Shown here: piece after piece, positions 1,496 through 46,825 of the stretch
How positions within the stretch are numbered: the stretch's first letter is position 1
Layout of the letters: each line of letters starts with the position of its first letter
From: Alphaproteobacteria bacterium
GTDB lineage: Bacteria > Pseudomonadota > Alphaproteobacteria > UBA7985
Assembly: GCA_965229645.1 (NCBI GenBank)
Contig: OZ245893.1
Coordinates: 770,529-834,528, forward strand
Length of the DNA: 64,000 nt
Direction: 5' to 3'
Notes under the pieces: generated by a model
What the model was told of the DNA's origin: nothing
Seen by the model: the letters and a program-made list of their open reading frames with translations, nothing else
The model's database searches: none
Position numbers and translations under genes: made by a program

Positions 1496-3922
1496 CTAGC
1501 TGCGCATCCGCGCGCCGTTGTGGTCGAACAAGGCGGTGCGTTGCGGGGTTGCGGCGTAGGTTTTGCCCAGAATTTCGACCGACCAACCCGTTTCCCGATC
1601 CGCCATTTCTTTGGGGACGTAGCCCATAGCGACTGAGACGGATGAAGTATGGGCATAACCACCCGATGTGACCCAACCGACGCACACATCGTTGAGCATG
1701 AGGGGCTCGTCGCCGATCACGTCGGCCTTGTTTGCTGCTACCGTGAAGGTCACCAAGCGATAGGCTGTGCCCCCTGCTGCCTTCTGTTCGACTGCGGCTT
1801 GCTTGCCGATAAAATCCGCGGATTTTTTCACGGCGACAAATCGACCAAGTCCGCATTCGTAGGCATCGTAAATCGGGCGGTACTCGCGCGCCCAGCTGCC
1901 GAAGGATTTTTCAAGCCGCAAGGCGTTGAGCGCCCGCAACCCAAAAGGTTTCAGGCCTAAGTCCTGACCCGCGACCATCAGCGCCTCCCATATGTGCAGT
2001 TGATCGTGCGGTTCCATCCATAACTCGTAGCCCAGATCGCCCGTAAAAGAGACACGGCCCACCAACGCCTGAGACAGGCCAAGGGTCATGGGGCGCAAAT
2101 CCATAAACTTCATCGCGTCCGCGCTGACGTCCGCGCGCGTAATTCGTTGCAGCAGATCGCGCGACTTGGGACCCGCAATCGACAAGCCGACCTTGCGCGG
2201 ACCGTAGGCCGTGATCCGCACATCAAAACCCTCGGCCTGCTGGTCGAACCAACGCCGATGATAGTCTTCGGCGACGCCCGACCCGATCAGCAGGTATTGC
2301 CCCGCAACAGGTTGGCCAAGGGAGAAATCCCCAATCACGCGCCCATCGTGTTTCAGCATGGGAGCGAGCGTCATGCGCCCGACGCCAGGGAGGCGGCAGG
2401 CGAGCAAGCGGTCGAGGTAAGCCGCCGCGTCGGGTCCCTCGATCCCGTACTTGGCGAAACCTGAGGTTTCGATCAGCCCGACCTTGTCGCGTACATTCTG
2501 CGCCTCGGCCGCCACATGGTCAAAGTCGGTCGAGCGATACCAGGAAAATTCATCCTGAACGCCTGCGGGGGCGTACCAGAGCGGCACCTCCAACCCATAG
2601 GAGGCCCCCATTTGCGCACCGAGTGCGCGTTGACGGTCATAGACGGGCGTGGTGCGCAAGGGCCGGGCGGCGGGCAGTTCCTCGTTCGGGAAGCGAATGG
2701 AAAAACGGCGCGAATAGTTTTCCCGCACTTTGGCGTTGGTATAGGCCAAGGTGGCAAAGTCGCCAAAGCGCGACACGTCCATGGCGAACACGTCAAATCC
2801 TGGATCGCCCTCGATCATCCAGTTCGCGAGCGCAAGGCCGACGCCGCCGCCCTGGCTAAAGCCCGCCATGACCCCGCACGCCATCCACAAGCCCCGCTTG
2901 CCCCGTATTGGGCCGACCAAGGGATTGCCGTCGGGGGCAAAGGTGAAGGGACCATTGATAATTTGCTTGATCCCCGTGTTCTGAAACGCGGGAAAGTGGG
3001 TGAAGCCGACCTCGAGTTCTTGCGTAATCCGATCCAAGTCGGGCTCGAGAAGTTCCTTCGAGAAGTCCCAACTGGTTTCGTAAGGCATCCAAGGGCGGCA
3101 GTCTTTCTCATAGGTGCCCATCAACATGCCGCCGCGTTCTTGGCGCAGATACAGCTCGCCATCGAAGTCCACCGCGTGCAGCATTTCTTTGCCTGTCTTG
3201 GCATTGAACTCCGCGACCTCGGGCATGTCTTCGGTAATGAGATACATGTGTTCCATGGCCAGAACTGGCAGCTCCAACCCTACCATGCGCCCAACCTCGC
3301 GCGCCCACAGTCCGCCCGCGTTCACGACGTGTTCGGCAATCAAGTCCCCCACGCTCGTATGAATTTTCCAGGTCTGGTCGGGCAATTGCTCAATAGCCTC
3401 GACCTTGGTCTGCTGATAGATTTCGGCGCCGTTCTTGCGCGCCGATTTGGCGTAGGCGTGCGTTGTGCCATAGGGATCGAGGTGTCCCTCAATTTCGTCG
3501 TAGAGCGCACCGACAAACTGATCGGGGTCGAGCAACGGCATGAGATCGTGGGCCTCTTTGGGCGTGATAATATGCGCCTTAAGGCCCAGGTACTTGCCCT
3601 TGCCCGCGATCGACTTGAGCCAATCGAACCGCGCTTCGGTGGCCGCCAGCATGACCCCACCCGTCATATGCAGGCCGATGTCTTGGCCGCTGGCCTCCTT
3701 GATTTCCTGGTAAAGGTCCACCGTATATTTTTGCAGCTTGGCCACATTGGGGTCACCGTTGATGGTGTGCATGCCGCCCGCCGCATGCCAGGTGGACCCT
3801 GCCGTTAGTTCGGCGCGCTCCAGCAAGACCACATCTGTCCAGCCAAACTTGGTCAGGTGGTATAGTACCGAGGCACCGACAACGCCGCCGCCAATGACCG
3901 CGACTTTCGCATGTGACTTCAT
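1496..3922 (-). CDS. dmgdh: Dimethylglycine/sarcosine dehydrogenase family protein (FAD oxidoreductase N-domain plus GcvT-like folate-binding C-domain)
   Basis: 808 aa. N-terminal VAVIGGGVVGASVLYHL dinucleotide fold. Long C-terminal aminomethyltransferase-like domain typical of DMGDH/SarDH. Confidence 0.75.
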   Translation of the reverse strand: MKSHAKVAVIGGGVVGASVLYHLTKFGWTDVVLLERAELTAGSTWHAAGGMHTINGDPNVAKLQKYTVDLYQEIKEASGQDIGLHMTGGVMLAATEARFDWLKSIAGKGKYLGLKAHIITPKEAHDLMPLLDPDQFVGALYDEIEGHLDPYGTTHAYAKSARKNGAEIYQQTKVEAIEQLPDQTWKIHTSVGDLIAEHVVNAGGLWAREVGRMVGLELPVLAMEHMYLITEDMPEVAEFNAKTGKEMLHAVDFDGELYLRQERGGMLMGTYEKDCRPWMPYETSWDFSKELLEPDLDRITQELEVGFTHFPAFQNTGIKQIINGPFTFAPDGNPLVGPIRGKRGLWMACGVMAGFSQGGGVGLALANWMIEGDPGFDVFAMDVSRFGDFATLAYTNAKVRENYSRRFSIRFPNEELPAARPLRTTPVYDRQRALGAQMGASYGLEVPLWYAPAGVQDEFSWYRSTDFDHVAAEAQNVRDKVGLIETSGFAKYGIEGPDAAAYLDRLLACRLPGVGRMTLAPMLKHDGRVIGDFSLGQPVAGQYLLIGSGVAEDYHRRWFDQQAEGFDVRITAYGPRKVGLSIAGPKSRDLLQRITRADVSADAMKFMDLRPMTLGLSQALVGRVSFTGDLGYELWMEPHDQLHIWEALMVAGQDLGLKPFGLRALNALRLEKSFGSWAREYRPIYDAYECGLGRFVAVKKSADFIGKQAAVEQKAAGGTAYRLVTFTVAANKADVIGDEPLMLNDVCVGWVTSGGYAHTSSVSVAMGYVPKEMADRETGWSVEILGKTYAATPQRTALFDHNGARMRS

Positions 3923-4155
3923 TCTTCTCTTCCTTGAGACTTGAGCTGTTGATGATAGGCCGCCGCCTCGGGCATACCTGCCTCAAGGGCGAAGACGTAG
4001 GCGTGGGTTAAATAGAAGGCCGCGCGCTCAGGGTCGCTGCCATAGTGCGCGGCGGCTTGGGCATAGAGCCTGGCGAGTTCCGGGCCTTGCCCATGCTCGT
4101 GGGCGGCCAGTAACCGCGCCTCGAGGTCCTTCACACCATGCGTTCTGCCACCCAT
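3919..4155 (-). CDS. Small hypothetical protein (78 aa) filling the Rieske-DMGDH gap
   Basis: Its stop overlaps the DMGDH start (ATGA at 3919-3922) and its start overlaps the Rieske gene end. No recognisable domain. Could be a spurious high-GC ORF. Confidence 0.3.
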   Translation of the reverse strand: MGGRTHGVKDLEARLLAAHEHGQGPELARLYAQAAAHYGSDPERAAFYLTHAYVFALEAGMPEAAAYHQQLKSQGREE

Positions 4156-5267
4156 TGGTGGAACAGGTGCGTCGGGCCGTCCATGGCCGGAGAAAACTTG
4201 CCCCCGTCGAAGTGAATGCCATAACGGCCCTTCTGCATGCCCTCGACGACAAAAATGTCTTCCTTAAACACCTCTTTCCACATGGCAGCGTTCTTCGCGC
4301 GCAGCTCATCGTAGGCGGTGCTGGTCATGTCGGGGCTGGCATAATAGAGCTCAATGTGCTCACGCGTTTGGTCTTGACCTAAGGGTTCCAAAATGATGGC
4401 GAAGGCATGATCCCGATGAACGCCGAATAGAACATTGGGCGCGACCGTGATATACTCCGCGGCCTTGTCCCAGTGGCCGCTAAGCCCCGCGAAGTCTTGG
4501 AACCGCCTGCCGTCGTCCGACAGCATGGGGCTATAAACCAAAGTACCCTGCCCCGAAAACTTGCCAGGCTGCTCAATGTTGTAGTGATCCTCCAAACGCG
4601 AGTAGGAGTTCAACCCAGGATGCACCCAGGGCAGGTGGTAGGACTCGCAGTAGTTCTCAGCCGCCAATTTCCAATTGCAATCGACGTTGAGCTTAAAAGA
4701 ACTCTCGGCACCGCCGTGGTAAAGCGGTTGCTCGAATTCAGCCCAACGCTGAATCAGGTCCCTATGCATTTGGTCAAATGGTTCCGCGTCGCCGCTCACA
4801 TTAACGAAAATCACATCGCGCCACACATGGGCTCGGATCGACGTTAGGCCGAGTTCCGAGCGGTCCATGTCGGGATGCGTATTCTGGCCAGGGCCGCCGA
4901 CGTGCGGGGTTGTTTTGAGATCGCCTTGCAAGGAATAGCACCAGGAGTGGTAGGGACACCGAATCACCCCGCGCACATTTTTGGGTTCCTCCACCAGAAT
5001 CATCCCCCGATGGCGGCAGGTATTCTGAAACACCCCGATCTCCCCCGCCTGATCGCGCACCGTAAGCAGGGGCATCCCTAGGAGCGAGACGGGTTTTACA
5101 TCGCCCGCCTCGGGAATATCTTTGCCAAAGGCGATGGCGGTCCAGCCCGCAAAGAATATTTTCTCGCGTTCGGCCCCAAACACCGACGGGTCAGTGTAGA
5201 ATTGGTTGGGCAAGCCCTTGGCTTGCGCGACAGGTTGTTGGACGAGAGACAAATCAAGCATAGGCAT
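4131..5267 (-). CDS. Rieske [2Fe-2S] non-heme iron oxygenase alpha subunit (GbcA/CntA/Stc2-like quaternary-amine demethylase family)
   Basis: Rieske motif CRHRG...CPYHSW. C-terminal catalytic domain with conserved His/Asp residues. Sits in an operon with a DMGDH-family gene. Confidence 0.7.
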   Translation of the reverse strand: MPMLDLSLVQQPVAQAKGLPNQFYTDPSVFGAEREKIFFAGWTAIAFGKDIPEAGDVKPVSLLGMPLLTVRDQAGEIGVFQNTCRHRGMILVEEPKNVRGVIRCPYHSWCYSLQGDLKTTPHVGGPGQNTHPDMDRSELGLTSIRAHVWRDVIFVNVSGDAEPFDQMHRDLIQRWAEFEQPLYHGGAESSFKLNVDCNWKLAAENYCESYHLPWVHPGLNSYSRLEDHYNIEQPGKFSGQGTLVYSPMLSDDGRRFQDFAGLSGHWDKAAEYITVAPNVLFGVHRDHAFAIILEPLGQDQTREHIELYYASPDMTSTAYDELRAKNAAMWKEVFKEDIFVVEGMQKGRYGIHFDGGKFSPAMDGPTHLFHQWVAERMV

Positions 5268-5320: not shown

Positions 5321-6340
5321 CTACAGCGACTCCCCCGCGAGTTGCCGCATTCGTTCGAACACGCACAGTCCCTGCACGCTGAGATAGTGGGGGATATCGA
5401 TAAAGACCCAATTTTCCGCCAGCTTGTCGCCCTCGCGGCGATAGACGTCAACAACCCGCATGGGCGCCGCAGTTGGGTTCCCAACCATCCCTAAGAAACC
5501 GCCCGCATTCTTGTTGTTCAGATTTGGCCACCCAAAAAAGGCGCCAAAGGTCCCCTCTGCGATCCGCGCCACATGGCCATTAAATTGCTTGTCATAGAGA
5601 TTAAGGCGAAAGGGGTATTGGTGCTGTTGCTGATAGCGGGGGATGGTTCGTGTCGCGCCGATCCCGCACGGCCCGTACCAGGACATGTGTTCCGCCCAAT
5701 GCTTGCGCAACAAATCGGCTGGAAAAGGCACCGCATCGTCGAGGTTCGCCGCGCCCAAGTGGGTCGTCATCTCGTTGATCAAACGCAAGGTTCGTTGCCC
5801 CTCGGCCACTGGCTGTGCCTGCAACAACCGCCCTGTCCCCCCCTTGGGGCCTGGGTAGGTGAACCAACGTCCCGTCATGGGCGGTAAGGGATAGGCGCCG
5901 CAATCGTGCATCAACCCAATCAAATCAACCCAGAGCGCCGACTCAGCGATCCTGTCCTCTGTTACGCGGTGAAACTCGGCATAGCGCAGAAACGTCAAGC
6001 GACCCGTAGGGGGAATGCCTATGAGTGGCCGATCGTATAGACCTGCAAAATGTCCCATGGAGCAGGTCCAGACTTGCCCCGCTGTGCCCTGTTCACTTTC
6101 ACTTAGGCCCGCAAAGAATAGATCTTCGCGCCGCTCAAAGCCCCCAAAAGACTGCCGCAAAGGCCGCCAGAACGTGGCAACCGCTGCGGACGCGCAAGGG
6201 CATTCATAAAATGGCCGAACACCGCGCCAGCTATAGTGCGTGGACGCAAAGGCATGATGCACATCTTCCAAGTCTGTCGAGGTATCGAGACTTGTGGTGA
6301 AACGTTGAACCAGGTCCTTCGCGCTTTGAAGGTCCGTCAT
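5321..6340 (-). CDS. Tandem SnoaL-like/NTF2-like domain protein (ester-cyclase-like), function unknown
   Basis: 339 aa, two NTF2-like halves. Start ATG overlaps the stop of the upstream low-GC gene (ATGA at 6337-6340). Confidence 0.45.
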   Translation of the reverse strand: MTDLQSAKDLVQRFTTSLDTSTDLEDVHHAFASTHYSWRGVRPFYECPCASAAVATFWRPLRQSFGGFERREDLFFAGLSESEQGTAGQVWTCSMGHFAGLYDRPLIGIPPTGRLTFLRYAEFHRVTEDRIAESALWVDLIGLMHDCGAYPLPPMTGRWFTYPGPKGGTGRLLQAQPVAEGQRTLRLINEMTTHLGAANLDDAVPFPADLLRKHWAEHMSWYGPCGIGATRTIPRYQQQHQYPFRLNLYDKQFNGHVARIAEGTFGAFFGWPNLNNKNAGGFLGMVGNPTAAPMRVVDVYRREGDKLAENWVFIDIPHYLSVQGLCVFERMRQLAGESL

Positions 6341-7902
6341 GGCGAGCGCCCCTGGGACGCCTCGGCAAGAGACACAGTGCTCTGAACGGGTCTCGACTGC
6401 AAATAGTTGCGATACTCTTGTTGCGCAATTTCGATAAACTTGGGCTCAATTCGCAACAAATCGTTCTTAATAAAGGGCATGCCATGCAGCTTGGTATGGA
6501 CAAAGGTCGCCTCCCTCGTCGTGACGGTAAGATTCAAGAACTTCTTGAGCCATCGTCGAATAATCTTTGAATGCTCGTGAACCAATCTTGGGTTGTCCAT
6601 GATGAGTTTTCTTATACTCCAATTCAACTCAAACCAGGGAGTAGATCGAGGAATCATCAGAAGAGATTTTACAATCTCAAAAACCTCATCCGCTTTAGCT
6701 TCATCCAACTTCAACTTTTCTCTATTGAAAAGAGACCTATACGAGAGCCCCGCATTTCTTATCGATTTTGATAGTTCCTTTTCTCCAAGATATATGACTT
6801 CTGATTTTCTGGAATAGTAACCTAATTCCCTCCAGTAGTCTCGGAAGAACTTACTCCCAATTACCTTATCCTTACACAAAACGAGAAATGCACCCAGGTG
6901 AAAATTATCTTGGGTTGGAATATGGGTATTCTCCACAGCACCTGCAAAATCGCAGTCTAGGCTATTCAGTCGATCATACAAGTCGCTTAAAGCGCCTTCG
7001 TAAAGAAAGGTCTGCGAATCATTCGTAAGTAAGATTTTTGCTGGCTTTGCCTTCTGATCCAAAACCATCTCCATTGCGTCCTTATAGGCACCAAAATCAA
7101 TACCCAAATTGGGGCGCACTGCATAGTGAAAACTCTTGCTGCACAGATCGCATGGCAACGAGGGTTTCCGAAAAAGGCTATAGACAAAAGCAGAAAATCC
7201 AACATTGTGGATCAAAACAAACTGAACGTTGCGTTCAGATAAGCGTTTACACTCGGCCAAGAACACGGACTTATTTCCAATATCTCCGTGCAGGACAGCA
7301 ACCGCGATCATACTATCGGGTCCGATCTCATACCCCTTAGGACTAGAAACAACTGTTGACCCAAACAAGCCGAGTGCATATTTTATGATGCTGAATAGCA
7401 TCCCATAAATGAAGATCGACAGCGCGCGCAGATAGTTGGTTGTAAACAACTTTTTAAGGGCGCGCAATACCTCTCTAACAGGCCTATTTCTTTCCGAGAC
7501 ATAGGTGAGCTGTTCTATGATCCATCTCCATCCTGCCAGGGCCTTGGGTTTTTTGTCAAAGTTCCCAAATTCCAATGTCTGTTCTACATATGGTCTGAAC
7601 CGTCGATTTCCTGCCAACCGACTCGGATCATCCCAAAGGGAATTCTCAAAATCACTCTCTTGCATTCCCTTCGCAGTTCGTCCTTTACCGATTCCATCGA
7701 CCTCACCAAATCGCCCGATCTCAGAGCCTTGCATGTTTTCATTTAACCTTTTCTCATCTGCGAGCTCTTCGGAGGCGCCCTTAAGTTCTTCAAAAGTCGA
7801 TACGAACACATCGGAACTGCTCTTTATGGCGTTACGAGTTTGATAAAGACTTCGGTTTACTTTCAACCTCAGTTTATATTTCGCATATAGACCCAAAATC
7901 AT
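6337..7902 (-). CDS. Low-GC hypothetical protein, weak resemblance to RgpF-type (rhamnan synthesis F) polysaccharide biosynthesis proteins
   Basis: 521 aa. AT-rich codon usage in strong contrast to neighbouring genes. No DXD motif or other catalytic motif identified. Confidence 0.35.
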   Translation of the reverse strand: MILGLYAKYKLRLKVNRSLYQTRNAIKSSSDVFVSTFEELKGASEELADEKRLNENMQGSEIGRFGEVDGIGKGRTAKGMQESDFENSLWDDPSRLAGNRRFRPYVEQTLEFGNFDKKPKALAGWRWIIEQLTYVSERNRPVREVLRALKKLFTTNYLRALSIFIYGMLFSIIKYALGLFGSTVVSSPKGYEIGPDSMIAVAVLHGDIGNKSVFLAECKRLSERNVQFVLIHNVGFSAFVYSLFRKPSLPCDLCSKSFHYAVRPNLGIDFGAYKDAMEMVLDQKAKPAKILLTNDSQTFLYEGALSDLYDRLNSLDCDFAGAVENTHIPTQDNFHLGAFLVLCKDKVIGSKFFRDYWRELGYYSRKSEVIYLGEKELSKSIRNAGLSYRSLFNREKLKLDEAKADEVFEIVKSLLMIPRSTPWFELNWSIRKLIMDNPRLVHEHSKIIRRWLKKFLNLTVTTREATFVHTKLHGMPFIKNDLLRIEPKFIEIAQQEYRNYLQSRPVQSTVSLAEASQGRSP

Positions 7903-7984
7903 TTAATTATACCAACGCAAAGATACACTGATTCATTGACCAACCTGCGTCCAAGGACCAAACCTGAGGAGTGATGCCCCCACC

Positions 7985-8100
7985 AGTGTTCATCCTGCGC
8001 ACTGCGAAGCGAAGTCGCAGGATCCAGCACTCATCGGTTTCATGAAGTACAGACGGCATGAACCTTATACCAACGACTAAAAAAGTTGACACTTTTGTGG
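7985..8100. repeat. Junction with fragments of both repeat families (195-bp palindromic family fragment at ~7993-8040; MITE 5' end at 8067-8100)
   Basis: GCGAAGCGAAGTCGCAGGATCCAGCAC matches the inter-core segment of the tandem arrays at 44757-44810. ATACCAACGACTAAAAAAGTTGACACTTTTGTGGCCC matches the MITE 5' end. Confidence 0.5.
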
Positions 8101-8284
8101 CCCTTGGTGTCATGTGTTTACAAGTCCGAAGCACGTCAAAGCAGACCTTATGCGTTCCTCTCATTCTTTTGGTGTTCGTCAACCAAGTTCTATCAACACA
8201 AAGTAAAGAAACCAACGCGATCAAGAGTCAAATCGCATGAAGAGGACAGGAATTTTATTGGGGCGCAAGCAACGTATCGACACG

Positions 8285-9067
8285 CTAAGAACGATAAACC
8301 TGACTCGCGCCCGCGTTACTGGCACGTTTTCTGATGAGATCAAGGACCGCCGCATCCCGCTCTTGACCTTTTGCTGGCGCGAATAGAGCCTTGCCTCGGT
8401 TTTCCTCACCATCGGGAGGAACCGTCAAGTAATAGATCGCGATAGACTTGCGGCATTGACCCTCGGGCCCGTTCACGGGCCCAACAAGACCATGCCAACT
8501 ATTTTGGGTCGTATCAAACAAAACAGCTCGGTTGAACTTTGGAACAATGACTTCAATGAGGTCTTCGGGAGTCTTCTTTTTTGCTTTGGCTGACCAGAAC
8601 CCCAACTCACCTCCCCACGTATCTTGCCATTGGGCGTTCATATAGACAATTAGGTTCAGCTTTCGCTGCAAGCCCAACTTGGGATGGATGTTGTAATCAA
8701 GATGCTGGTTCAGCTTGCCCCCGCGCGCATGAATATGCCATCCACCGCCGTTCAATCCAGGGTCCGGAAATAAGGGAGAAATTCCCGTGAACGTCTCAAG
8801 ACAGGTAAGGAACCCAGGTGAGTTTAAGTAAGCGAATAGGGCATAGGTGAGCGGCGTAAACTCATTGTAATCGTTGCATGTCTTTTTAATTTCAATCGCA
8901 TTCCGATACTCGTGCCAAACTGGAGACTGAAATTCTGGAAATTCCTCACTTAAGGAACTGGCGACTTTAGGGTCGAAGAAATCGTCGAGAACAATGTGAT
9001 CAAAAGGCTTGCGATGCTGAAACTGATCAGGGGTAAAGGCGCGGATACCGTACTTGAGTTCCATCAC
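8285..9067 (-). CDS. 2-oxoglutarate/Fe(II)-dependent oxygenase superfamily protein (low GC)
   Basis: HxD...H facial triad (QHLDYNIH ... SWHGLV) and the basic RKS motif near the C-terminus. AT-rich. Confidence 0.6.
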   Translation of the reverse strand: MMELKYGIRAFTPDQFQHRKPFDHIVLDDFFDPKVASSLSEEFPEFQSPVWHEYRNAIEIKKTCNDYNEFTPLTYALFAYLNSPGFLTCLETFTGISPLFPDPGLNGGGWHIHARGGKLNQHLDYNIHPKLGLQRKLNLIVYMNAQWQDTWGGELGFWSAKAKKKTPEDLIEVIVPKFNRAVLFDTTQNSWHGLVGPVNGPEGQCRKSIAIYYLTVPPDGEENRGKALFAPAKGQERDAAVLDLIRKRASNAGASQVYRS

Positions 9068-9161
9068 AGTGCTCCAATTAAACCTGCGTGTCGTTCCCGT
9101 GTGTTCTTTGGATCAGCAAGGCGTGCGAGGGGTGGTGTTCCCCTTCGCACGACCAAGTTGT

Positions 9162-25950: not shown

Positions 25951-25963
25951 CCGTCAATCCCTA

Positions 25964-26160
25964 ATACCAACGGCCAAAAAAGTTGACACTTTTTTGTCCG
26001 TTTTGTGTCTCACGGCAGAAACGCTTCGCGTTTCGCCTCCGACGGGGCCTTCGCTTATACCCCGAGGCGCTTTCGCGCTATTCTCGGGGCCGCTACGGGG
26101 GCCGCAGTCGCGGCCCTTATGCCAGCGACTAAAAGAGTCATTCTCATTCGCCGCTGGTAT
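25964..26160 (+). repeat. MITE-like structured repeat, copy B
   Basis: ATACCAACGGCC...GCCGCTGGTAT with the same internal hairpins as copy A. Begins 14 bp upstream of the CoA-transferase start codon. Confidence 0.75.
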
Positions 26161-26199
26161 ATGAGGTGTTGCCCTGCAATCCAAGCCTTGTCCAAGCCC

Positions 26200-37501: not shown

Positions 37502-39175
37502 ATGATCTCGCTTGTGATCTTCAATGCCCGCGTCCTAACCATGGCGCGGGACACCCCCGTGGCGCAGGCGGTGGCGATTGCGGGCGACCGTATCGCCGCC
37601 GTCGGCAGCACCGCGGACATGCGGGCGCTCGCGACCCCAGGGACGCGCCAGATCGACGCGGGCGGGCGCACGGTCTTGCCTGGGTTCATCGACAGCCATG
37701 TGCATCTGTTCCAGGGTTCGGCAGAACTGGACTTCCTGCCCGTCGGCGGCCTCAGCAATTTGACCCATGTGGTACCCAAGGTGCAAGCCTATGTCCTTGA
37801 TCGGCCCGACGAGCCGCTGGTGCTCGGCGTCGGCGCGTTCTACGATCTGTTTTTGGGGACCGACGCCGACCCGCGCCACCTCCTGGATCGGATCCTGCCC
37901 GACCGCCCCTTCGCCCTGCTGGCGGCGGATCTCCATACCCTGTGGGCCAATACCCGCGCGCTCGATCGTGCGGGGCTGCTGCACGGGGCGGACATGCCCG
38001 AGGGCTCCACCGTGGTCATGGGCGCCGACGGCTGCGCCACGGGCACCCTGCTCGAAACCGGGGCCTTCGGCCCCGTCTTGGCGCTGTCGCGCACAGGCGG
38101 GCGCGATATGCTCGGCTACGTAACGGGCAAGGACCCCGACCCGCCCGCCACCGCCGCTGAGCGCGCGGCAGACAAGGACATGCTGGTCAAGGGCCTCGGG
38201 CATGTTGCCCAGCACGGCATCACGACGCTGCACAATATGGACGGCAACTTCTACCAGTTGGAATTGCTCAGCGAACTGGAAGCCCAAGGCCGCTTGACGG
38301 CGCGGGTGCAAGTCCCGTTTCACCTCAAGAACTTCGATCCCCTCGACCGCCTGGAGGAGGCCGCCGCCATGCACGCCCAATACCGGGGCGCCAAAGTTTG
38401 GTCGGGCCGAGTCAAGATGTTCATGGACGGGGTCATGGAAAGCCGCACCGCGCTCAAGTCCAAAGCCTATCCCGACGCGCCGACCCGCCAGGGCGAGGCC
38501 CTGTTCGCGCCCGATCACTTCAACGAAGCCTGCCGCCGCGCCGACGCGCTGGGCCTGCAAATCAGCGTCCATGCCGTCGGCGATCTCGCGGTCACGCGCG
38601 TGCTCGACGGCTACGAAGCCGCCCGCACCGCCAACGGCCCGCGCGACGCGCGCCATCGCGTTGAGCACATCGAACTGATCACCGACGCAGATCTGGTACG
38701 GATGCGGCGCTTAGACGTGGTCGCCTCCATGCAGCCGCGCCACGCCGCCTTCGCAGGGTTCTTCGAGCCCCCGCAGCCGAACACGATCTTGTTCGACCAC
38801 GAATGCGCGCGCGCCTACGCCTGGCAAACGATTCGGGAACGGGGCATCACGCTGGCCTTCTCAACCGACTGGCCCGTCGTGCCCGTCCATGTGTTGGCGA
38901 ACATCCAAAGCGCCGTCGCCCCCTTGGACTTGGGGCCTGGATGGCCCGATCAGCGCCAATCGCTCATGGATACCTTGCGCAGCTACACGGCCATGAACGC
39001 CTGGCTCGGCTTTCAGGAAGGCCACACGGGCCAGATTCGGCAGGGCTTGGCGGCGGACCTGGTGGTCTTGGACGGTTCGATTGAGGACACGGCCCCGACG
39101 CAGATCGGCGATCTCGGCGTTGCGTTGACCTTGTGCGATGGTCGGGTGACTTATGATGGGGGTCGGGTGACTTGA
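37502..39175 (+). CDS. Metal-dependent amidohydrolase (Amidohydro_3-like family)
   Basis: GFIDSHVHLF metal-binding start of the barrel. 557 aa. The last ~130 codons are duplicated at 44297-44697. Confidence 0.7.
   Translation: MISLVIFNARVLTMARDTPVAQAVAIAGDRIAAVGSTADMRALATPGTRQIDAGGRTVLPGFIDSHVHLFQGSAELDFLPVGGLSNLTHVVPKVQAYVLDRPDEPLVLGVGAFYDLFLGTDADPRHLLDRILPDRPFALLAADLHTLWANTRALDRAGLLHGADMPEGSTVVMGADGCATGTLLETGAFGPVLALSRTGGRDMLGYVTGKDPDPPATAAERAADKDMLVKGLGHVAQHGITTLHNMDGNFYQLELLSELEAQGRLTARVQVPFHLKNFDPLDRLEEAAAMHAQYRGAKVWSGRVKMFMDGVMESRTALKSKAYPDAPTRQGEALFAPDHFNEACRRADALGLQISVHAVGDLAVTRVLDGYEAARTANGPRDARHRVEHIELITDADLVRMRRLDVVASMQPRHAAFAGFFEPPQPNTILFDHECARAYAWQTIRERGITLAFSTDWPVVPVHVLANIQSAVAPLDLGPGWPDQRQSLMDTLRSYTAMNAWLGFQEGHTGQIRQGLAADLVVLDGSIEDTAPTQIGDLGVALTLCDGRVTYDGGRVT
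38773..39162 (+). repeat. Left copy of a ~390-bp imperfect direct repeat (3' end of the amidohydrolase gene); att-like boundary of the integrase islet
   Basis: About 97% identical to 44297..44687 over the whole length. Identity ends at 39162, followed by a 12-bp local duplication GTCGGGTGACTT (39141-39152 and 39163-39174). Confidence 0.7.
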
Positions 39176-39469: not shown

Positions 39470-39606
39470 CCTGGAGCGCATAGAATCAATAGCCGCGCGT
39501 AGATGAGCAACGGTCGTCTGATTTTTGCACTGGAGTTGCGCACAAGGTGGGTCGCGCATCGACTTCTCGTGCAAGGGAGCGAACACCTACAAAATGGAGT
39601 TCCCCA

Positions 39607-40506
39607 ATGTCAGAATTCACTGAACAAATTACAACCTATCTCACCCATTGTGAAAGATCGCGCAGTCTAAGCCCCCACTCCCTTAGGGCCTATGCGCAAG
39701 ACTTGTTTGATTTTCTCTCCTTCAGAGCTGTGCACGACAAAGAAGATGCAGTAAAACCAGAAACCCTTATCGATTACGTATATCACTTAAGACATGATCG
39801 TAATCTTAAACCAGCTACGGTGCGCAGAAGGCTGACTTGTGTTCGCGCGATGTTGCTTTGGACTTATCAAGACAACTCAGCGCTTTGTTCCAGAATTCGA
39901 GAACAAGACCTTGAACTGCGAGTTCCAAAAACCCTACCCAAGCCCATAGAGCGGCAAGACATACGGCATATTCTGCAAATTGGCGAAACAGTTTTATCCA
40001 AGTCAACCTGGAAACAAACTGCTCTGCTCATACGTCTCATTGTCGCAACAGGACTCAGGATCAGCGAAATTCTCAACATCAAACTCAAAGATGTTAGCAC
40101 CGACGGCAGAACAATCCGCGTGATGGGTAAAGGGAGCCGTGAGCGCACGGTTTACGTGGTCAATATCGATGTTCTCCAAGAGTTTACTGAAATGCTCTGC
40201 GGTAGGCAGAACCACAATCCAAATGATCACGTGTTTCAGAATGCCTGGGGTCGGCCTCTAAGTGCAAGCGCATTTCGAAAACGCCTAAAGGACTTGACAT
40301 CCAGGCCAAATGTGCCGGCGCATCTATCTCCACATAAGCTTCGACACTCCGCGGCAACCCTGCTGATTGAGGAAGGGGTGGATATTCGCTTGATTCAAAG
40401 GTTGCTTGGTCATGCCAGTATCGCGACTACGGAACTCTATACCAAGGTTACCGACACATCTCTCCGCGCAGCGCTTGAGTGTGCGGACACAATTTCAACG
40501 ATTTAG
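39607..40506 (+). CDS. Tyrosine-type site-specific recombinase/integrase (XerC/D-like fold)
   Basis: Start MSEFTEQ. Catalytic residues in GLRISEIL, HKLRHSAAT and LLGHASIATTELYTKV. Intermediate GC. Confidence 0.8.
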   Translation: MSEFTEQITTYLTHCERSRSLSPHSLRAYAQDLFDFLSFRAVHDKEDAVKPETLIDYVYHLRHDRNLKPATVRRRLTCVRAMLLWTYQDNSALCSRIREQDLELRVPKTLPKPIERQDIRHILQIGETVLSKSTWKQTALLIRLIVATGLRISEILNIKLKDVSTDGRTIRVMGKGSRERTVYVVNIDVLQEFTEMLCGRQNHNPNDHVFQNAWGRPLSASAFRKRLKDLTSRPNVPAHLSPHKLRHSAATLLIEEGVDIRLIQRLLGHASIATTELYTKVTDTSLRAALECADTISTI

Positions 40507-40531
40507 AGAGGAGTGGCGATAACAAAGAATT

Positions 40532-41644
40532 ATGGGCAGAGATGACCAGCTAATAGTGATTTCAAAACACTATGACAATTTCAAAAATTACGCCCTGGCT
40601 AGTGACGCCTACAAGTATATCGCTTTTTCTGGAAGTCCTATTCTAACAGAAAAAATTTGGGTTAGGGGAGCTGAAACGGGCAGAAGCAGTAAACAATTTA
40701 TGTCTTCATTGACGATAGGAGACATCGGCATTTACGATAAAGGCAGATTCCAGATATTCTTTAACCAACCGTCGATGTTATCTCAGCAATGGAGTTACTT
40801 GCCGAATGTTACTGTTCTAGCGCCCAACTTACACTCATATCAGCAAGCCGCAGACAAATTTAACTTCTACAGCTGGATAGTCAAGTATGGAAATTCAGCG
40901 ATTAAAGAAGTAATGCTAAATCAAATTTCACAATTTAACATCCATTTCAGAGTAGGTAGACCAAAGCCAAATGACAGAAAAATAAGCTCATCTCAAAAGG
41001 GAGAAGGGGGAAGTTCCTATCAATCAAGTGCTCCTAAAGACTGTGATAGTGTATATAGAACATCAAGTTTCTGCAACTACGAGGTTGGTCTAATAATGCA
41101 ATCAGTAGCATATCAAGATGGATGTATTCATGGACCTGTAGGTAGAGTTTGGAGTGGACATGAAGAAAACCCCTACAGGAATAGCTGCATATATTATGAC
41201 CCGAATGTAGAGAATATGATTGATTTAGATAGAATGTATCAGCTTCAAACCGATGTATTCTGCCTCTTAAGAGAAATGAAGTTCACTGGCGCATTCAGCA
41301 CTGATTGGCTTTATACAACAAACGGAGGAAAATTCTATTTTCTCGAAGTCAATCCAAGATTTTCAAGCGACGTGTGCTTGTTTGATCAAAGCTACAAAAA
41401 CAATGGAATTCAAAATCAAATTGCGGTTAATCATCAAATGTCGACATCTGAGAGTTTCCTAGGGAGGCGTATTGAGATAGTGAGTTTTTGTGAGTTTGGT
41501 GGCAGTGAAGAGTTTCGAGCATACTTTCCGCTGGAGAGGACACATGAAAACCATAATTTTGCACTTAATATGTCTCGGAGAGTTCCAGAGTACCTCCTGG
41601 ATTTTCATACAAACCATATGCTTCTCCATTTATCTGAAACTTGA
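40532..41644 (+). CDS. ATP-grasp-like protein, low GC (function unknown)
   Basis: 370 aa. GKFYFLEVNPRFSSD resembles the ATP-grasp E-x-N motif region. Strongly AT-rich. Starts 26 bp after the integrase stop. Confidence 0.45.
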   Translation: MGRDDQLIVISKHYDNFKNYALASDAYKYIAFSGSPILTEKIWVRGAETGRSSKQFMSSLTIGDIGIYDKGRFQIFFNQPSMLSQQWSYLPNVTVLAPNLHSYQQAADKFNFYSWIVKYGNSAIKEVMLNQISQFNIHFRVGRPKPNDRKISSSQKGEGGSSYQSSAPKDCDSVYRTSSFCNYEVGLIMQSVAYQDGCIHGPVGRVWSGHEENPYRNSCIYYDPNVENMIDLDRMYQLQTDVFCLLREMKFTGAFSTDWLYTTNGGKFYFLEVNPRFSSDVCLFDQSYKNNGIQNQIAVNHQMSTSESFLGRRIEIVSFCEFGGSEEFRAYFPLERTHENHNFALNMSRRVPEYLLDFHTNHMLLHLSET

Positions 41645-42998
41645 TTTGTGAAGTTTCTATCAATTTCATCTCTCTGTTTCTCAAATTATGTATTTCTATC
41701 TGCAGTTGAAGTTCTTCAGCCTGATCTTTCAATTTCTCTAACGTTGAATAGTTAAGTGAATCAACAACTTCTGTTGTCATTTCGCTTAGCTGATCAAGGA
41801 GTTCATTAATGTCTAAGTGAATTGTCGACGCTCCTAACACAGAAGAGGCAACCCAAGCCCAGCGAAGTGCATATGCCAACTTCATGGCTCTTCTGAAGAC
41901 TATGCTTCCTTCATATATTTCAGAACTTTGAATCGATTGATATTTTATACAGCTATCAATTGCACTAATTATTTGTGCACACTTTTTCCAGTCTTCAGGG
42001 GAGGCTAAATTGGCGGAGCCAAACCGTACGTGTAAAATGACCTCTCCCCAATACAGTGCTTCCAATTCAGCGCCTGCACGTTTTGCCCTGGAAAAAATCA
42101 CCCCAGGGATTTTTCCCTCTTGATTGCCACTTATGCTTAAGGAGTCTTTTAATAGAGGAGCGAGAATTTGTTTAGCTTTAACATTATCTCGAAGTGACTT
42201 TATAATATTGATTGATTGATCTAATCGATATAGCAGGTCTTGCGATTGCAGCCTATCCAATAAATCCTTAATCCAAGCAAAATTGATTTCGGATTGCTCA
42301 AGTTCAGAAATTCTAATTGACAAGTTTATTTTTTGGAAAAAATCAAGATTTTCGGAGTTTATAAAATTTTGCAAAACTTCGATTAATTTTTCTTTGGAGT
42401 GTATATTTTGGGAGTCATTTGGTTCATTCAAACTGGAAATCTCAAATGATGAAACGCTTCCTAAAAAATCTCTTGGTCCAATTATATAGGACAAATTTTC
42501 CAATGAGATCTCCAGTGACTCGATCACCGTATTGTCCAAAATCAATGCAGTTGCAGATACAGACCTGAGGTCAAGTTTGTTAAATCTGCAACTCCTAAAC
42601 AAACTATCCTCGAGACCGTTTGATGTCATATCTATGTCATTAAACTTACATCTCTCATATATAGTTTCGCGCATATTGCTATGTTTGTAACGAATCCGAC
42701 CCTCACCTAAGAAGTCACAGTCGCTAAATCGTGCTCCAAAAAAGCTGCAGTCTCTTATTTCTGTATCATCAGTAAAAATGAAATCGCAACTCTCAAATAT
42801 TGAGAAAACAAAGTTGCAGTTAACAAATTTACAATCTATAAACTTGCATTTTATGTATGTAGTAAGGCGTGCCTCAATACGCCGGAAATCGATATTCGGG
42901 AAAGTATATCCGACAAATGATTGATAGGATACTGTTCTGCGAAATAGAGATTCCTTCCAAACCAGATCAGTTTCAGGCACGCTCGTTAGATCATTCAT
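41565..42998 (-). CDS. Pentapeptide-repeat protein with a C-terminal coiled-coil-rich domain of unknown function, low GC
   Basis: N-terminal runs of CKFIDCKFVNCNFVFSIFESCDFIFTDD...CSFFGARFSDCDF...CKFNDIDM...CRFNKLDL (A(D/N)LXX-type pentapeptide repeats). 477 aa. Convergent with the ATP-grasp gene; their 3' ends overlap by 80 bp. Confidence 0.6.
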   Translation of the reverse strand: MNDLTSVPETDLVWKESLFRRTVSYQSFVGYTFPNIDFRRIEARLTTYIKCKFIDCKFVNCNFVFSIFESCDFIFTDDTEIRDCSFFGARFSDCDFLGEGRIRYKHSNMRETIYERCKFNDIDMTSNGLEDSLFRSCRFNKLDLRSVSATALILDNTVIESLEISLENLSYIIGPRDFLGSVSSFEISSLNEPNDSQNIHSKEKLIEVLQNFINSENLDFFQKINLSIRISELEQSEINFAWIKDLLDRLQSQDLLYRLDQSINIIKSLRDNVKAKQILAPLLKDSLSISGNQEGKIPGVIFSRAKRAGAELEALYWGEVILHVRFGSANLASPEDWKKCAQIISAIDSCIKYQSIQSSEIYEGSIVFRRAMKLAYALRWAWVASSVLGASTIHLDINELLDQLSEMTTEVVDSLNYSTLEKLKDQAEELQLQIEIHNLRNREMKLIETSQIKFQINGEAYGLYENPGGTLELSETY

Positions 42999-43242
42999 AA
43001 TTCTTTGTTATCGCTAAATTTCGTTTCGGTTAGCATGGCTGGGTCGACTTTGCAACCTACGAGTGATGACTGATTTTCGCAGTGTACCACCTCTGTTCCT
43101 GAAACGCACAATAGCGCTTCACTGGGGAAGGTCAACATATCCAGTTTAACTGCAAATTTAGAGACCGTGTCCAAGTACAGATCATACTCACGGCTAAGGA
43201 GAGGAGTTCGACTTTGCGGGGTGGAGCCTTCCGTTTTTTTGT

Positions 43243-44010
43243 CTGGTGTTCCGTGATGGATGCTGCGACTGCGCGCAGCATGACATCGGAAGGGGTGTCG
43301 GGGTTTCGGAACACCGTCATCCAGCGCGTTGCGAAGCGATGTCGCAGGGTCCAGCGCCCGCCGTTTTCAGCCTGGGTGGAACTTGGTGACACAGAGCAGA
43401 ACAGGCATCGCGCGGTCGGCACCGTCTGCTCTTGTGGCCTGTGTTCCGTGATGGATGCTGCGACTGCGCGCAGCATGACATCGGAAGGGGTGTCGGGGTT
43501 TCCGAACACCGTCGTCCAGCGCTTCGCGACGCGACTTCGCGGATCCAGCGCCTGCCGTTTTCAGCCTGGGCGGAACTTGGTGACATAAAGCAGAACGGGC
43601 AAGGCGCGGTCGGCACAGTCTGCTCTTGTGGTCGGTGTTCCGTGATCGATGCTGCGACTGCGCGCAGCATGACATCGGAAGGGGTGTCGGGGTTTCCGAA
43701 CACCGTCGTCCAGCGCGTCGCGACGCGATGTCGCGGATCCGGCGCCTGCCGTTTTCAGCCTGGGTTTAACTTGGTGACATAGAGCGGAGCAGGCAAGGCG
43801 CGGTCGGCACCGTCTGCTCTTGTGGCCTGTGTTCCGTGATGGATGCTGCGACTGCGCGCAGCATGACCTCGGAAGGGGTGTCGGGTTTCGGAACACCGTT
43901 ATCCAGCGCGTCGCGACGCGACGTCGCAGGATCCAACGCCTGCCGTTTTCAGCTTGGACAGAACGTGGTGACATATAGCCGAACGGGCAAGGCGCGGTCG
44001 GCACCATCCG
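43243..44010. repeat. Tandem array 1 of a ~192-198-bp high-GC nested-palindrome repeat (4 units)
   Basis: Units start at 43243, 43441, 43633 and 43829. Core is GTGTTCCG-TGATGG-ATGCTGCG-actgcg-CGCAGCAT-...-CGGAACAC, followed by a conserved segment with the CGTCGCGACG / GCGACGTCGC palindromes. Confidence 0.85.
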
Positions 44011-44254
44011 TTCGTAGGGTCAGCGTGCTGGGGTGGATGTGGCGGGGCCAAGCAGCGCTTTGTTATTTGACTTCGACCCTGGGATGGAACAGCAGGGCGA
44101 TGGGAATATCCAACGCCGACGGAGCATTCGATGGACCGACGCGAGCAGGCCGCCTGCGTTCGCCAGTACTTTGAGTATTTGACCGCTTCCAATTAAGCTG
44201 CGATCCTCGACTTGTTCGATCCCGATGGGGATGTCGATTCTCCCTATCTGGACA
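44003..44254 (+). repeat. Copy 1 of a ~255-bp segmental duplication (array terminus plus decayed 5' part of a small SnoaL-like ORF); copy 2 at 47343..47605
   Basis: Collinear near-identity with 47343-47605. The small ORF is interrupted here by TAA (..FEYLTASN*) but is intact in copy 2. Confidence 0.7.
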
Positions 44255-44296
44255 GGATGCGCGCTTGCGAATTCTTCGCCAAACTCGCCGAGGCCT

Positions 44297-44697
44297 CGCA
44301 GCCTAACACGATCCTGTTCGACCACGAATGCGCGCGCGCCTACGCCTGGCAAACGATCCGGGAACGGGGCATCACGCTGGCCTTCTCAACGGACTGGCCC
44401 GTCGTGCCCGTCCATGTACTGGCGAACATCCAAAGCGCGGTCGCCCCCTTGGACTTGGGGCCTGGATGGCCCGATCAGCGCCAATCGCTCATGGATACCT
44501 TGCGCAGCTACACGGCCATGAACGCCTGGCTCGGCTTTCAGGAAGCCCACACGGGCCAGATTCGGCAGGGCTTGGCGGCGGACCTGGTGGTCTTGGACGG
44601 TTCGATTGAAGACACGGCCCCGACGCAGATCGGCGATCTCGGCGTTGCGTTGACCTTATGCGATGGTCAGGTGACTTATGATGGGGGAAGGTTTTGA
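44297..44697 (+). pseudogene. Displaced duplicate of the amidohydrolase 3' end (right att-like repeat), fused in frame to a SnoaL-like leader fragment (chimeric ORF 44212..44697)
   Basis: ..QPNTILFDHECARAYAWQTIRERGITLAFSTDWPVVPVHVLANIQSAVAPLDLGPGWPDQRQSL.. is near-identical to residues encoded at 38773-39175. It lacks the N-terminal ~420 aa. Confidence 0.7.
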
Positions 44698-44756
44698 TAC
44701 TCACGAGAACATGAGTTAGGCTACCCACACCCTCGACGTCCGCCCCCTGCCCGACG

Positions 44757-45690
44757 TCATCCAGCGCGGAGCGAAGCGAAGTCGCAGGATCCATCACCCG
44801 CTGTTTCCCCTGAAACGGAACGCGGCCACAAGGAGAGAAGCACGCAACCCAAGAGTCGGTCCCGTCCGCTTTCGCGACAGACGTTCAGTGATGGATGCTG
44901 CGACTGCGCGCAGCATGACATCGGAAGGGGGTGTTGGGGTTTCGGAACACCGTAATCCAGCGCTTCGCGACGCGACGTCGCAGGATCCAGCGCCTGCCGT
45001 TTTGAGCCTGGGCGGAACGTGGTGACACAGAGCAGAACAGGCATCGCGCGGTCGGCACCGTCTGCTCTTGTGGTCGGTGTTCCGTGATGGATGCTGCGAC
45101 TGCGCGCAGCATGACGTCGGAAGGGGTGTCGGGGTTTTGGAACACCGTCATTCAGCGCGTCGCGACGCGACGTTGCAGGGTCCATGGCCTGCTGTTTCGT
45201 CCTAGGCTGAACGTGGTGACATAGAGCGGAACGGGCAAGGAGTGGTCGGTACCGTTTGCTGTTGTGGTCGGTGTTCCGTGATGGATGCTGCGACTGCGCG
45301 CAGCATGACACCAGGAGGGGCGTCGGGGTTTCGGAACACCGTAATCCAGCGCTTCGCGACGCGACGTCGCAGGATCCAGCGCCTGCTGTTTTGAGCCTGG
45401 GCGGAACGTGGTGACAAAGAGCGGAACAGGCAAGGCGCGGTCGGTACCGTCCGTTCTTGTGGCCTGTGTTCCGTGATGGATGCTGCGACTGCGCGCAGCA
45501 TGACATCGGAAGGGGGTGTTGGGACTCTGAACCAGCGTCATCCGGCGCGGAGCGAAGCGAAGTCGCAGGGTCCATCACCTGCTGTTTTCAGCCTGGGCGG
45601 AACTTGGTGACATAAAGCGGAACGGGCAAGGCGCGGTCGGCACTGTCCGCGCTTGTGGCCAGTGGTCCGTGATGGATGCTGCGATTGTTT
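44757..45690. repeat. Tandem array 2 of the ~195-bp nested-palindrome repeat (~5 units, last truncated)
   Basis: Same core GTGATGGATGCTGCGACTGCGCGCAGCATGAC recurring at ~44888, 45084, 45279, 45473 and 45668. Confidence 0.85.
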
Positions 45691-45797
45691 TGTGATGCGG
45701 ACGTTCCTTGCGCCTTTGGGGATTGGAGCCCGCTTGCAAACCGCAGCCGTGGCCCTACACCAGATCCAACAAGAATTTTTCGCAATAGGGTTTGTCC

Positions 45798-46166
45798 CTA
45801 TCGAGCCATCCAGCCTCTATCGGCGGCCAGAGCCCGCAACCGCTTTGCCCTTATTGTGACTTGATTATTGGTTAGGCCCGAAAAATCAATAAGAAAGTGG
45901 GCAGGATTTTCAGGGACAGGATCCGCCTCAAATGGCAAATCAAGACGACGATATTCCTCCTCACTAAGACTCTGAACGCCGATACTATCGAAACCACGCG
46001 CGAGAAAATTAGCCAAACTGCCTTGAGCAGAAACCAAGGCTTCATGATCTACCGACAAGCATGATTGGTTTTTGAGCATAGGTTTGAACGCAAGGCTCAT
46101 AACCCTTCCATCTTTTTCATGATCGGCGCAAATATTCCTCATAAGACACTTCTTCCCAGCATTCAT
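45798..46166 (-). CDS. Hypothetical protein (122 aa), lower GC, second gene of a two-gene cassette
   Basis: ATGA overlap with the upstream ORF at 46163-46166. No recognisable motif. Confidence 0.4.
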   Translation of the reverse strand: MNAGKKCLMRNICADHEKDGRVMSLAFKPMLKNQSCLSVDHEALVSAQGSLANFLARGFDSIGVQSLSEEEYRRLDLPFEADPVPENPAHFLIDFSGLTNNQVTIRAKRLRALAADRGWMAR

Positions 46167-46654
46167 CGTGAGTTAAAGCGTAAAGGTGAACTACGAATTT
46201 TCTCAACTGAGTGCTTGAGCAGTTGAGCATCTGGATTTTTCAATGATGTTTCTGTTTCATGATTTGAAGATAAGTCGATTCCACACATATCAACATCTCC
46301 AGAATCTAAAAATTCAATCGAGAAATCCCATCCATTTTCCTGAAATTCAAAATGAATATCCCCGTCTGGAGTCGAGGCCACACACAAATTTTGTGGCAGA
46401 GATCGCGCTGTGTAGAGGAAGAACAAACTCTTACTAAGAGTTAACTTCCTCGGCGCTTTTCCAACGCCATTGTGCCAACCCTTGGGCAAGTTACCATAGC
46501 TTTGAATTTTTTTTGTTGGCTCACTCAAAGGATGTTGGGGATCTTGTGATCTTAGCTCTTCAACGACCCACGGATCCATTCTGTTTCGTTGCGCTTGTGT
46601 CGCACGCGAAACGCTTTGTGGGTCATATGTGCTTTGATGGACTTGGGCGTTCAT
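46163..46654 (-). CDS. Hypothetical protein (~163 aa), lower GC, first gene of a two-gene cassette
   Basis: Start taken at MNAQVHQ. The ORF-track N-extension runs into the LysR-fragment scar and is rejected. No recognisable motif. Confidence 0.4.
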   Translation of the reverse strand: MNAQVHQSTYDPQSVSRATQAQRNRMDPWVVEELRSQDPQHPLSEPTKKIQSYGNLPKGWHNGVGKAPRKLTLSKSLFFLYTARSLPQNLCVASTPDGDIHFEFQENGWDFSIEFLDSGDVDMCGIDLSSNHETETSLKNPDAQLLKHSVEKIRSSPLRFNSR

Positions 46655-46702
46655 TGAACTTGTATGGCATATGGGAAGCAAGCGGTCAATTCGGGGGACA
46701 AA

Positions 46703-46758: not shown

Positions 46759-46825
46759 TTGGATGGAGCCATTGCCGCGAGCCGCGGACCACGCTCAAGC
46801 GCCCCGCGTTCAGCTTGACATCTTG

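Follow-up and report, generated by a model that had tools for sequence, protein, structure and literature searches.

Why should a gene of low GC content end inside the start codon of a GC-rich catabolic operon? The question is raised by a patch near one end of the 64,000-nucleotide stretch of alphaproteobacterial DNA analysed here (the window: contig OZ245893.1 of assembly GCA_965229645.1, positions 770,529 to 834,528), where the gene for a 2-oxoglutarate/Fe(II)-dependent (2OG) oxygenase and a 521-amino-acid open reading frame (ORF) resembling the glycosyltransferase RgpF lie upstream of a gene for a SnoaL-like protein. An earlier note on this DNA had described the two genes as a horizontally acquired islet welded onto a native operon. 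The answer that we consider probable on balance is that a patch of 2.7 kb, from about 6401 to 9119, is foreign DNA composed of two modules, and that the frame of the glycosyltransferase (GT) gene reads through to the ATGA with which the SnoaL-like gene begins. The islet itself is real, and it is ordinary genome patchwork: a small low-GC accessory islet of glycan-type genes. Four relatives of the window, L081, L082, L083 and L174, were reached through members of its protein clusters, and further loci from other genomes are named below by their L numbers. The islet and its edges contain the following features.

5321-6340, minus strand: SnoaL-like (NTF2-fold) gene of 339 amino acids, native and first of its operon, as judged by its GC content at third codon positions (GC3, 0.66) and by synteny with L001
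6337-6340, minus strand: ATGA, the stop of the GT gene over the start of the SnoaL-like gene, the same in L081, L082 and L174
6337-6400, minus strand: tail of the 521-residue ORF with native composition, 21 codons, a putative former SnoaL-like leader with a Shine-Dalgarno-like AGGGG, as suggested by the GC change-point, the end of the nearest homologue and the structural model
6337-7902, minus strand: 521-residue divergent RgpF-family glycosyltransferase of GT-A fold, assigned from Pfam, conserved residues, AlphaFold2 (AF2) and Foldseek
7903-8284, minus strand: spacer of 382 nt between the two low-GC genes, with an RNA fold z-score of 0.04
7907-7917, minus strand: second exact copy of the motif CGTTGGTATAA, ending 4 nt 5' of the start codon of the 521-residue ORF
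7988-8039, no strand assigned: fragment of repeat family A (a 194-nt repeat), with 40 of 52 bases as in the reference copy (77% identity)
8063-8105, no strand assigned: terminal hairpin of repeat family B (a repeat of about 200 nt), of which 39 nt are 87% complementary to 871-909
8285-9064, minus strand: prolyl-hydroxylase-like 2OG-Fe(II) oxygenase of 259 amino acids from an ATG (260 from the GTG at 9067), assigned from Pfam, alignment and AF2
9068-9119, minus strand: oxygenase-gene leader at the upstream border of the islet, marked by a drop in GC and lacking significant similarity to L083
9123-9150, minus strand: GC-rich hairpin (gtgcgaagggg...cccctcgcac) just 3' of a potF-like gene, the final native sequence before the islet, kept in L083

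The composition of the patch sets it apart from its surroundings. We profiled GC in 400-nt windows and placed the borders by a maximum-likelihood search for GC change-points. Coming from the native operon, GC is 0.57-0.60 at 5400-6400 and 0.40-0.47 at 6401-8200; the oxygenase gene lies at 0.48-0.50, and values of 0.54-0.58 are regained beyond 9100. Over the patch as a whole, about 6401-9119, GC drops to 0.40-0.50 from 0.57-0.62. The median GC3 of the 52 long ORFs in the window is 0.68 (robust standard deviation 0.078), and at 0.48 for the 521-residue ORF and 0.53 for the oxygenase gene the islet genes fall 2-2.6 robust standard deviations below it. Only two other parts of the window, at 39.5-43 kb and 45.8-46.8 kb, reach comparably low GC. 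The atypical composition that had been suspected is thus borne out both in sliding-window GC and in third-position GC. The abrupt drop is also real, but not its supposed place at 6340: the likeliest break is at 6401, within the 521-residue ORF and about 60 nt inside it, and 6337-6400 has about 67% GC. At the other end the islet begins at about 9119-9120, directly past the hairpin. Every gene between 1.5 and 13 kb is on the minus strand, and the order in the direction of transcription is edd, eda, the potF-like gene, the oxygenase gene, the 382-nt spacer, the 521-residue ORF and the SnoaL-like gene, followed by genes for a Rieske oxygenase, a 78-residue product and a dimethylglycine-dehydrogenase (DMGDH)-like protein. 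The compositionally foreign patch thus separates a zwf-pgl-edd-eda-potF block from the native SnoaL-like/Rieske/78-residue/DMGDH operon, at a point where synteny is broken.

At the downstream border, the four bases ATGA belong both to the ORF at 6337-7902 and to that at 5321-6340, as had been stated. The native-composition tail of the upstream ORF coincides with the point at which protein homology ends. The nearest homologue, P0010, stops at the alignment position of residue ~503, the final helix of the AF2 model ends at 503, and the model's confidence (predicted local distance difference test, pLDDT) declines past ~500. The tail also holds what a leader of the SnoaL-like gene would be expected to hold, with AGGGG lying 8 nt 5' of the SnoaL-like ATG. 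The SnoaL-like orthologues in L001 and L175 likewise start with ATGA behind a similar AGGG(C/G) stretch, and the bases that precede the ATG in the window are similar to their leaders. In those two loci the upstream intergenic regions measure 187 nt and 398 nt and contain no overlapping gene, so the TGA of the overlap was already present in the start of the SnoaL-like gene. The claim of a join between foreign and native DNA therefore stands, but the junction lies inside the ORF, and the ATGA is not the joint itself but the ancestral start of the SnoaL-like gene.

These sequences are best explained by read-through in an incoming gene that had lost its stop codon; the weld does not look like an evolved coupling device. 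We propose that the GT segment joined native DNA about 60 nt 5' of the SnoaL-like start without a stop codon of its own, so that its frame continues through 21 native leader codons and ends at the first in-frame stop, the TGA of the ancestral ATGA. Because only about 60 nt of native leader would be left, transcription of the operon probably starts within the foreign gene or upstream of it, and ribosomes that complete the GT frame could re-initiate on the SnoaL-like gene. The arrangement resembles translationally coupled ATGA pairs in its stop/start overlap and in the Shine-Dalgarno-like AGGGG inside the upstream ORF. It differs from them in that the partners are unlike in composition and function, and in that the weld seems to have come from read-through into a pre-existing ATGA rather than from co-evolution within an operon. 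Overlaps of 4 nt are common in the window (at least six others), so this one is unremarkable save that it crosses a compositional boundary.

Does the distribution among relatives agree with an insertion? L081, L082 and L174 are 98.9-99.7% identical to the window in nucleotide sequence and all have the weld; L082 has the 521-residue ORF whole, and in L174 and L081 the 3' parts of it that can be read run into the same overlap. The congener L083, at about 83% nucleotide identity, has the order potF, hairpin, 117 nt, a complete family-B element, about 100 nt and the Rieske gene, and so lacks the oxygenase, glycosyltransferase and SnoaL-like genes, an indel that corresponds to 5341-9119 of the window. 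It keeps a remnant of the 3' end of the SnoaL-like gene: when the sequences are put in register on the stop codon, 20 of 30 and 26 of 42 bases agree, and no random offset out of about 6400 does as well; an unanchored local alignment of the same remnant is weak, with 32 of 500 shuffles as good. Since the remnant is in register, L083 is a deletion derivative and not an empty site. Absence of the islet from a relative, which had been suggested as a check, is therefore found in L083, but the SnoaL-like gene is missing there too and its remnant marks a deletion scar. In L083 coordinates the loss falls within 8166-8602, where some 40 nt from the 3' end of the SnoaL-like gene are left; evidently that species can use, or has at any rate retained, a Rieske/DMGDH operon lacking this gene. 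We found no trace of the oxygenase or GT gene in L083. A candidate remnant of the oxygenase gene or its leader looked suggestive in a MAFFT alignment and was rejected, as 163 of 500 shuffles score as well. Farther away, in L001 and L175, the SnoaL-like gene is preceded by a gene for a thiamine-pyrophosphate (TPP) enzyme and by no islet. Neither in the window nor in L082 or L083 was the TPP-enzyme gene found, so that the islet lies where synteny had been broken before the split from L083.

The same comparison can be read differently. The islet may be an old resident that stood at the junction of potF and the SnoaL-like gene in the common ancestor with the L083 species and was removed from L083, along with the SnoaL-like gene, by one deletion; low GC would then be the usual AT-richness of variable surface-glycan genes and no sign of recent transfer. 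The gap in L083 speaks for this, in that it comprises exactly three genes, from the potF hairpin to about 45 nt from the SnoaL-like stop, and holds both the SnoaL-like remnant and the family-B element; so does the presence of the weld in alleles about 6% apart, and homologues of the oxygenase gene elsewhere are also found in locally low-GC polysaccharide regions. We nevertheless think it rather unlikely, since an old resident should not be so entirely without trace in L083, has no counterpart before the SnoaL-like gene of L001 and L175, and fits poorly with so low a GC3 and so sharp a change-point. Even under this account the DNA would ultimately be foreign, and timing alone would differ.

Several observations weigh against a foreign patch that is read through into a native operon. 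No integrase, insertion sequence (IS), tRNA gene or flanking direct repeat was found in or beside 6401-9119, and the repeat fragments sit only in the middle of the islet, with none at its borders. Scans for promoters and terminators gave hits at chance level. Polysaccharide genes are commonly low in GC even when long resident. The weld exists in lineages that have diverged by about 6%, and so is old enough to be shared, and a clean empty site is lacking, as the sole congener in which the islet is missing arose by deletion. Word-indexed and exhaustive protein searches found no donor lineage for the glycosyltransferase, and no further polysaccharide-synthesis genes lie near the islet.

What, then, does the 521-residue ORF encode? 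It had been assigned to RgpF, and the homology search agrees: the match to PF05045 scores 50.9 bits against a gathering cut-off of 25 (E 1.3e-13), although it covers residues 262-415 only, corresponding to profile positions 26-184 of 503. Among 5.8 billion proteins, a word-indexed search matched the protein to itself alone. In an exhaustive HMMER search of 1.8 billion representatives the best non-self match was 28% identical (E 6e-30), most matches started only at residues ~190-260, and residues 1-130 had no match. NCBIfam and sequence searches of the PDB returned nothing for this protein or for the SnoaL-like protein. In a 41-sequence alignment, the family-invariant residues G267, D269, N294, D295, W357 and E374 are all retained, as are the near-invariant R263, N265, F270, G271, Y273, S296 and K479, and the invariant N294-D295-S296 ("NDS") occupies the place expected of the DxD motif in this family. 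AF2 gives the core (residues 190-500) a pLDDT of ~90 and places ahead of it one long helix (residues 1-61), a disordered segment (62-118) and a hydrophobic helix (~160-186). PcManGT, WrtF, SpsA and hyaluronan synthase are among the top 50 Foldseek matches in the PDB, which are GT-A enzymes, with E-values of 4e-6 to 1e-3 and target-normalised template-modelling scores of 0.18-0.49. Judged by sequence and predicted fold, the protein is a very divergent, near-orphan GT-A glycosyltransferase of the RgpF family, among the most isolated of its members, with an N-terminal extension that is unique and possibly membrane-associated.

RgpF elongates polyrhamnose chains in streptococci and lactococci (PMC9574508), and glycosyltransferases annotated as RgpF are present in capsule clusters of marine Gram-negative bacteria (PMC11641403). 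The window protein resembles the family in its above-threshold Pfam match, its retained RPNxGxDFGxY, NDS and GE motifs, its GT-A core, and the sugar-nucleotide enzymes that adjoin its homologues: the closest of these lie beside sugar epimerases (P0010, in L167) or a methyltransferase (in L168-L170). It departs from the family in that the profile match is partial, identity to any known protein is at most 28% and the N-terminal extension has no counterpart. Moreover, the gene is solitary: flanks of about 10 kb contain neither rml genes nor an ABC or Wzx/Wzy exporter nor a priming transferase.

Variation among strains is concentrated in this gene. The window and L082 differ at 161 positions in about 15 kb, 93 of them inside the 521-residue gene, and an allelic tract at 5978-7956 with about 112 differences ends just before the repeat fragments. 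The GT gene is thereby 5.9% divergent; the other genes differ by no more than about 1.6%, and the four most conserved by no more than 0.3%. There are no indels in the ORF between the window and L082, and the differing codons comprise 39 synonymous and 46 non-synonymous changes. Third codon positions account for 48 differences against 24 and 21 at the other two, a bias that argues for purifying selection. Residues 1-60 carry nine synonymous and four non-synonymous changes, so that the unusual N-terminus is translated and constrained, whereas residues 60-200, with six and 17, are relaxed or diversifying. L081 and L174 carry the window type of GT allele with small mosaic patches. The pattern fits allelic replacement by recombination at a variable surface-related gene, and it makes the GT gene a local hotspot of strain variation, as expected under selection by phages or grazers.

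These data also bear on the possibility that the ORF is a decaying, function-less remnant, that its overlap is accidental, and that a promoter inside the AT-rich sequence drives the operon. The ratio of non-synonymous to synonymous change is indeed fairly high, above all in residues 60-200, the N-terminal 130 residues have no homologues, AT-rich foreign DNA often bears promoter-like sequences, and overlaps of this kind are common in the window. Yet a remnant would hardly be free of indels in L082 and in the readable parts of L174 and L081, keep all six family-invariant residues in a confidently modelled core fold, and show third-position bias that reaches into residues 1-60, and we regard decay as improbable.

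The operon into which the ORF runs has three further genes.

4131-5267, minus strand: Rieske oxygenase, from Pfam and PDB sequence matches to CntA and Stc2
3919-4155, minus strand: 78-residue ORF without a Pfam family, overlapping the start of the DMGDH-like gene by 4 nt
1496-3922, minus strand: dimethylglycine-dehydrogenase-like gene of 808 amino acids, from Pfam and a DMGDH match with E 1e-174

The solved structures nearest to the Rieske protein are carnitine monooxygenase CntA and stachydrine demethylase Stc2, and it scores far under the cut-off for GbcA equivalogs. From the CntA/Stc2 and DMGDH matches, the label of a betaine- or N-methylamine-type operon that had been given to these genes is a fair one. 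L082, L083 and L174 have the same Rieske/78-residue/DMGDH order, and the small ORF is called as a gene of 78 amino acids in L082, L174 and L081 and of 71 in L083. The SnoaL-like, Rieske and DMGDH genes occur in the same order in L001, with amino-acid identities of 71%, 73% and 89%, which makes the three-gene operon ancestral. That the oxygenase, GT and SnoaL-like genes were imported as one three-gene unit is very unlikely: the indel against L083 (5341-9119) takes in the SnoaL-like gene, and none of 80 metagenomic Rieske loci (all with Rieske proteins at most 73% identical) has a SnoaL-like gene upstream, but the GC3 of that gene is native, the composition breaks at 6401, the three L001 genes diverge to a matching degree, and the 3' remnant in L083 indicates a deletion there. 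Within the Rieske gene, 4681-4848 forms a second short mosaic tract: L082 departs from the window at 16 sites within about 170 nt, L081 does so at 15 of these, and L174 agrees with the window there, which points to frequent homologous recombination among these strains.

The other islet gene is easier to place. Its suggested identity as a 2OG-Fe(II) oxygenase is supported by family, fold and iron triad: it matches PF13640 (2OG-FeII_Oxy_3) with 60.4 bits against a cut-off of 27 (E 3.6e-16) and also PF13661, and H121, D123 and H191 of the HxD...H motif, together with R205, are invariant in the alignment of homologues. These number 2849, mostly at 55-72% identity. The AF2 model is a double-stranded beta-helix (pLDDT 94.9) whose top Foldseek matches are OGFOD1 (4nhx) and Tpa1 (3kt4), with E 1e-11, followed by PolD/PasI, PHD2 and bacterial P4H. 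PHROGs and PADLOC gave only generic matches to the 2OG domain. The protein thus shares fold and metal- and co-substrate-binding pattern (HxD...H plus Arg) with the prolyl-hydroxylase-like enzymes OGFOD1/Tpa1, PHD2, P4H and PolD/PasI, and differs from the solved members in having a single domain of 259 residues and only 16-20% identity to them; the sugar-nucleoside enzymes PolD/PasI are among these solved relatives. Homologues adjoin heptose, epimerase and glycosyltransferase genes in L165 and L166, lie inside an rml/GT2/sulfotransferase cluster in L172, and occur in a hypervariable patch of small ORFs in L171. By these sequence contexts, the oxygenase family is large, marine and often embedded in surface-polysaccharide clusters. 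A 69%-identical homologue in the congener itself (L164, 10001-10792) stands alone in a patch of GC 0.44, with several IS3-type and DDE transposase genes around it and 1.2 kb without a called gene after it.

Do the two genes act as a pair? The earlier note had likened them to islands that modify cell-surface polysaccharides. That likeness holds for each gene singly, since homologues of each occur in such clusters, but not for the pairing: the two families are adjacent in none of seven homologue contexts. Their histories among strains differ as well, the GT gene being 5.9% divergent and the oxygenase gene showing one difference from L082. By their sequences the two behave as independent modules and not as a conserved pair, and a surface-glycan role is plausible for each. 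We accordingly picture the patch as two single-gene modules that may have come independently, with a spacer of degenerate native repeats between them. From their families, folds and homologue contexts, both genes are probably expressed and functional as glycan-modifying accessory genes. Two bolder proposals are, even taken together, hardly credible: that the oxygenase hydroxylates proline on a protein and the GT then glycosylates the hydroxyproline, or, more mildly, that the insertion put the N-methylamine operon under control of foreign DNA and so tied surface-glycan modification to osmolyte catabolism. Hydroxylation of proline followed by glycosylation resembles the Skp1 pathway and hydroxyproline glycosylation in plants, and if it were carried out by this pair it would be an unusual bacterial post-translational modification. 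DNA modification of the TET/JBP type, which also combines an oxygenase with a glycosyltransferase, was considered and rejected, as the oxygenase belongs to the prolyl-hydroxylase class and not to TET/JBP.

The spacer between the genes does contain fragments of both repeat families, as the earlier note had noticed, with 77% and 87% matches. The family-B terminal motif CGTTGGTATAA is exact at 8065-8075 and 7907-7917, and at no more than one mismatch it occurs nine times in the window against 0.36 expected. The spacer has no conserved fold (z = 0.04) and no Rfam match, and an Rfam scan of the window found two tRNAs, both outside the islet, and no match in the islet itself. A terminator-like hairpin at 8238-8215 belongs to a class of sites that occur at chance frequency. 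The sequence TGgTATAAT, 4 nt 5' of the ATG at 7902, was rejected as a promoter because it would start transcription beyond that ATG; the mostly synonymous change in residues 1-60 also disfavours it, as does a Met57 that is not conserved in L082. It is more likely part of a family-B repeat terminus.

Marine bacteria carry small genomic islets, or "flexible genomic islands", with glycosyltransferases and glycan-modifying genes. The islet in the window is like these in its low GC, its accessory genes of glycan type, the allelic diversity focused on the GT gene and the nearby repeats. It is unlike them in its size (2.7 kb, two genes), its position outside a larger glycan cluster, its borders without integrase, tRNA gene or IS, and its fusion to a catabolic operon by overlapping frames. 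It does not change current understanding, and its value is that of an annotated example: a clean, small case of foreign DNA apparently wired into a resident operon, with its stop borrowed from the TGA of the neighbour's ATGA. If transcription reads through, a catabolic operon would depend on an accessory surface-glycan gene.

Both repeat families occur elsewhere in the window. Family A forms three blocks of head-to-tail 194-nt repeats at 43200-47400, each unit containing two palindromes and the blocks 1-1.5 kb apart, with a partial copy at 59950-60025 and no Rfam match; between the blocks lie two low-GC ORFs without a Pfam match (45798-46798). Family B has full copies at 712-911 and 25962-26161 and further sequence at 50977-51063 and 52032-52287. 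It is intergenic and structured, with inverted CGYTGGTATWA termini and several internal hairpins, and also has no Rfam match. The copy in L083 (8283-8480) lies exactly at the deletion scar. These features suggest that family B is a mobile element, resembling miniature inverted-repeat transposable elements, or a recombinogenic one.

Past the end of the operon, 700-1420 holds a tRNA gene (1332-1418) and a family-B repeat, and beyond the DMGDH gene L081, L082 and L174 have differing sets of IS110, DDE and rve transposases, which makes this a strain-variable zone. A second, stronger low-GC island (GC 0.37-0.48) occupies 39547-44573. Its first gene encodes a tyrosine recombinase (Phage_integrase with a SAM-like N-terminal domain, 39547-40506), and a pentapeptide-repeat protein is encoded at 41565-42998. 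The island was apparently inserted in the 3' end of an amidohydrolase gene (37502-39175), the last 300 nt of which are duplicated at 44274-44573 with 94% identity.

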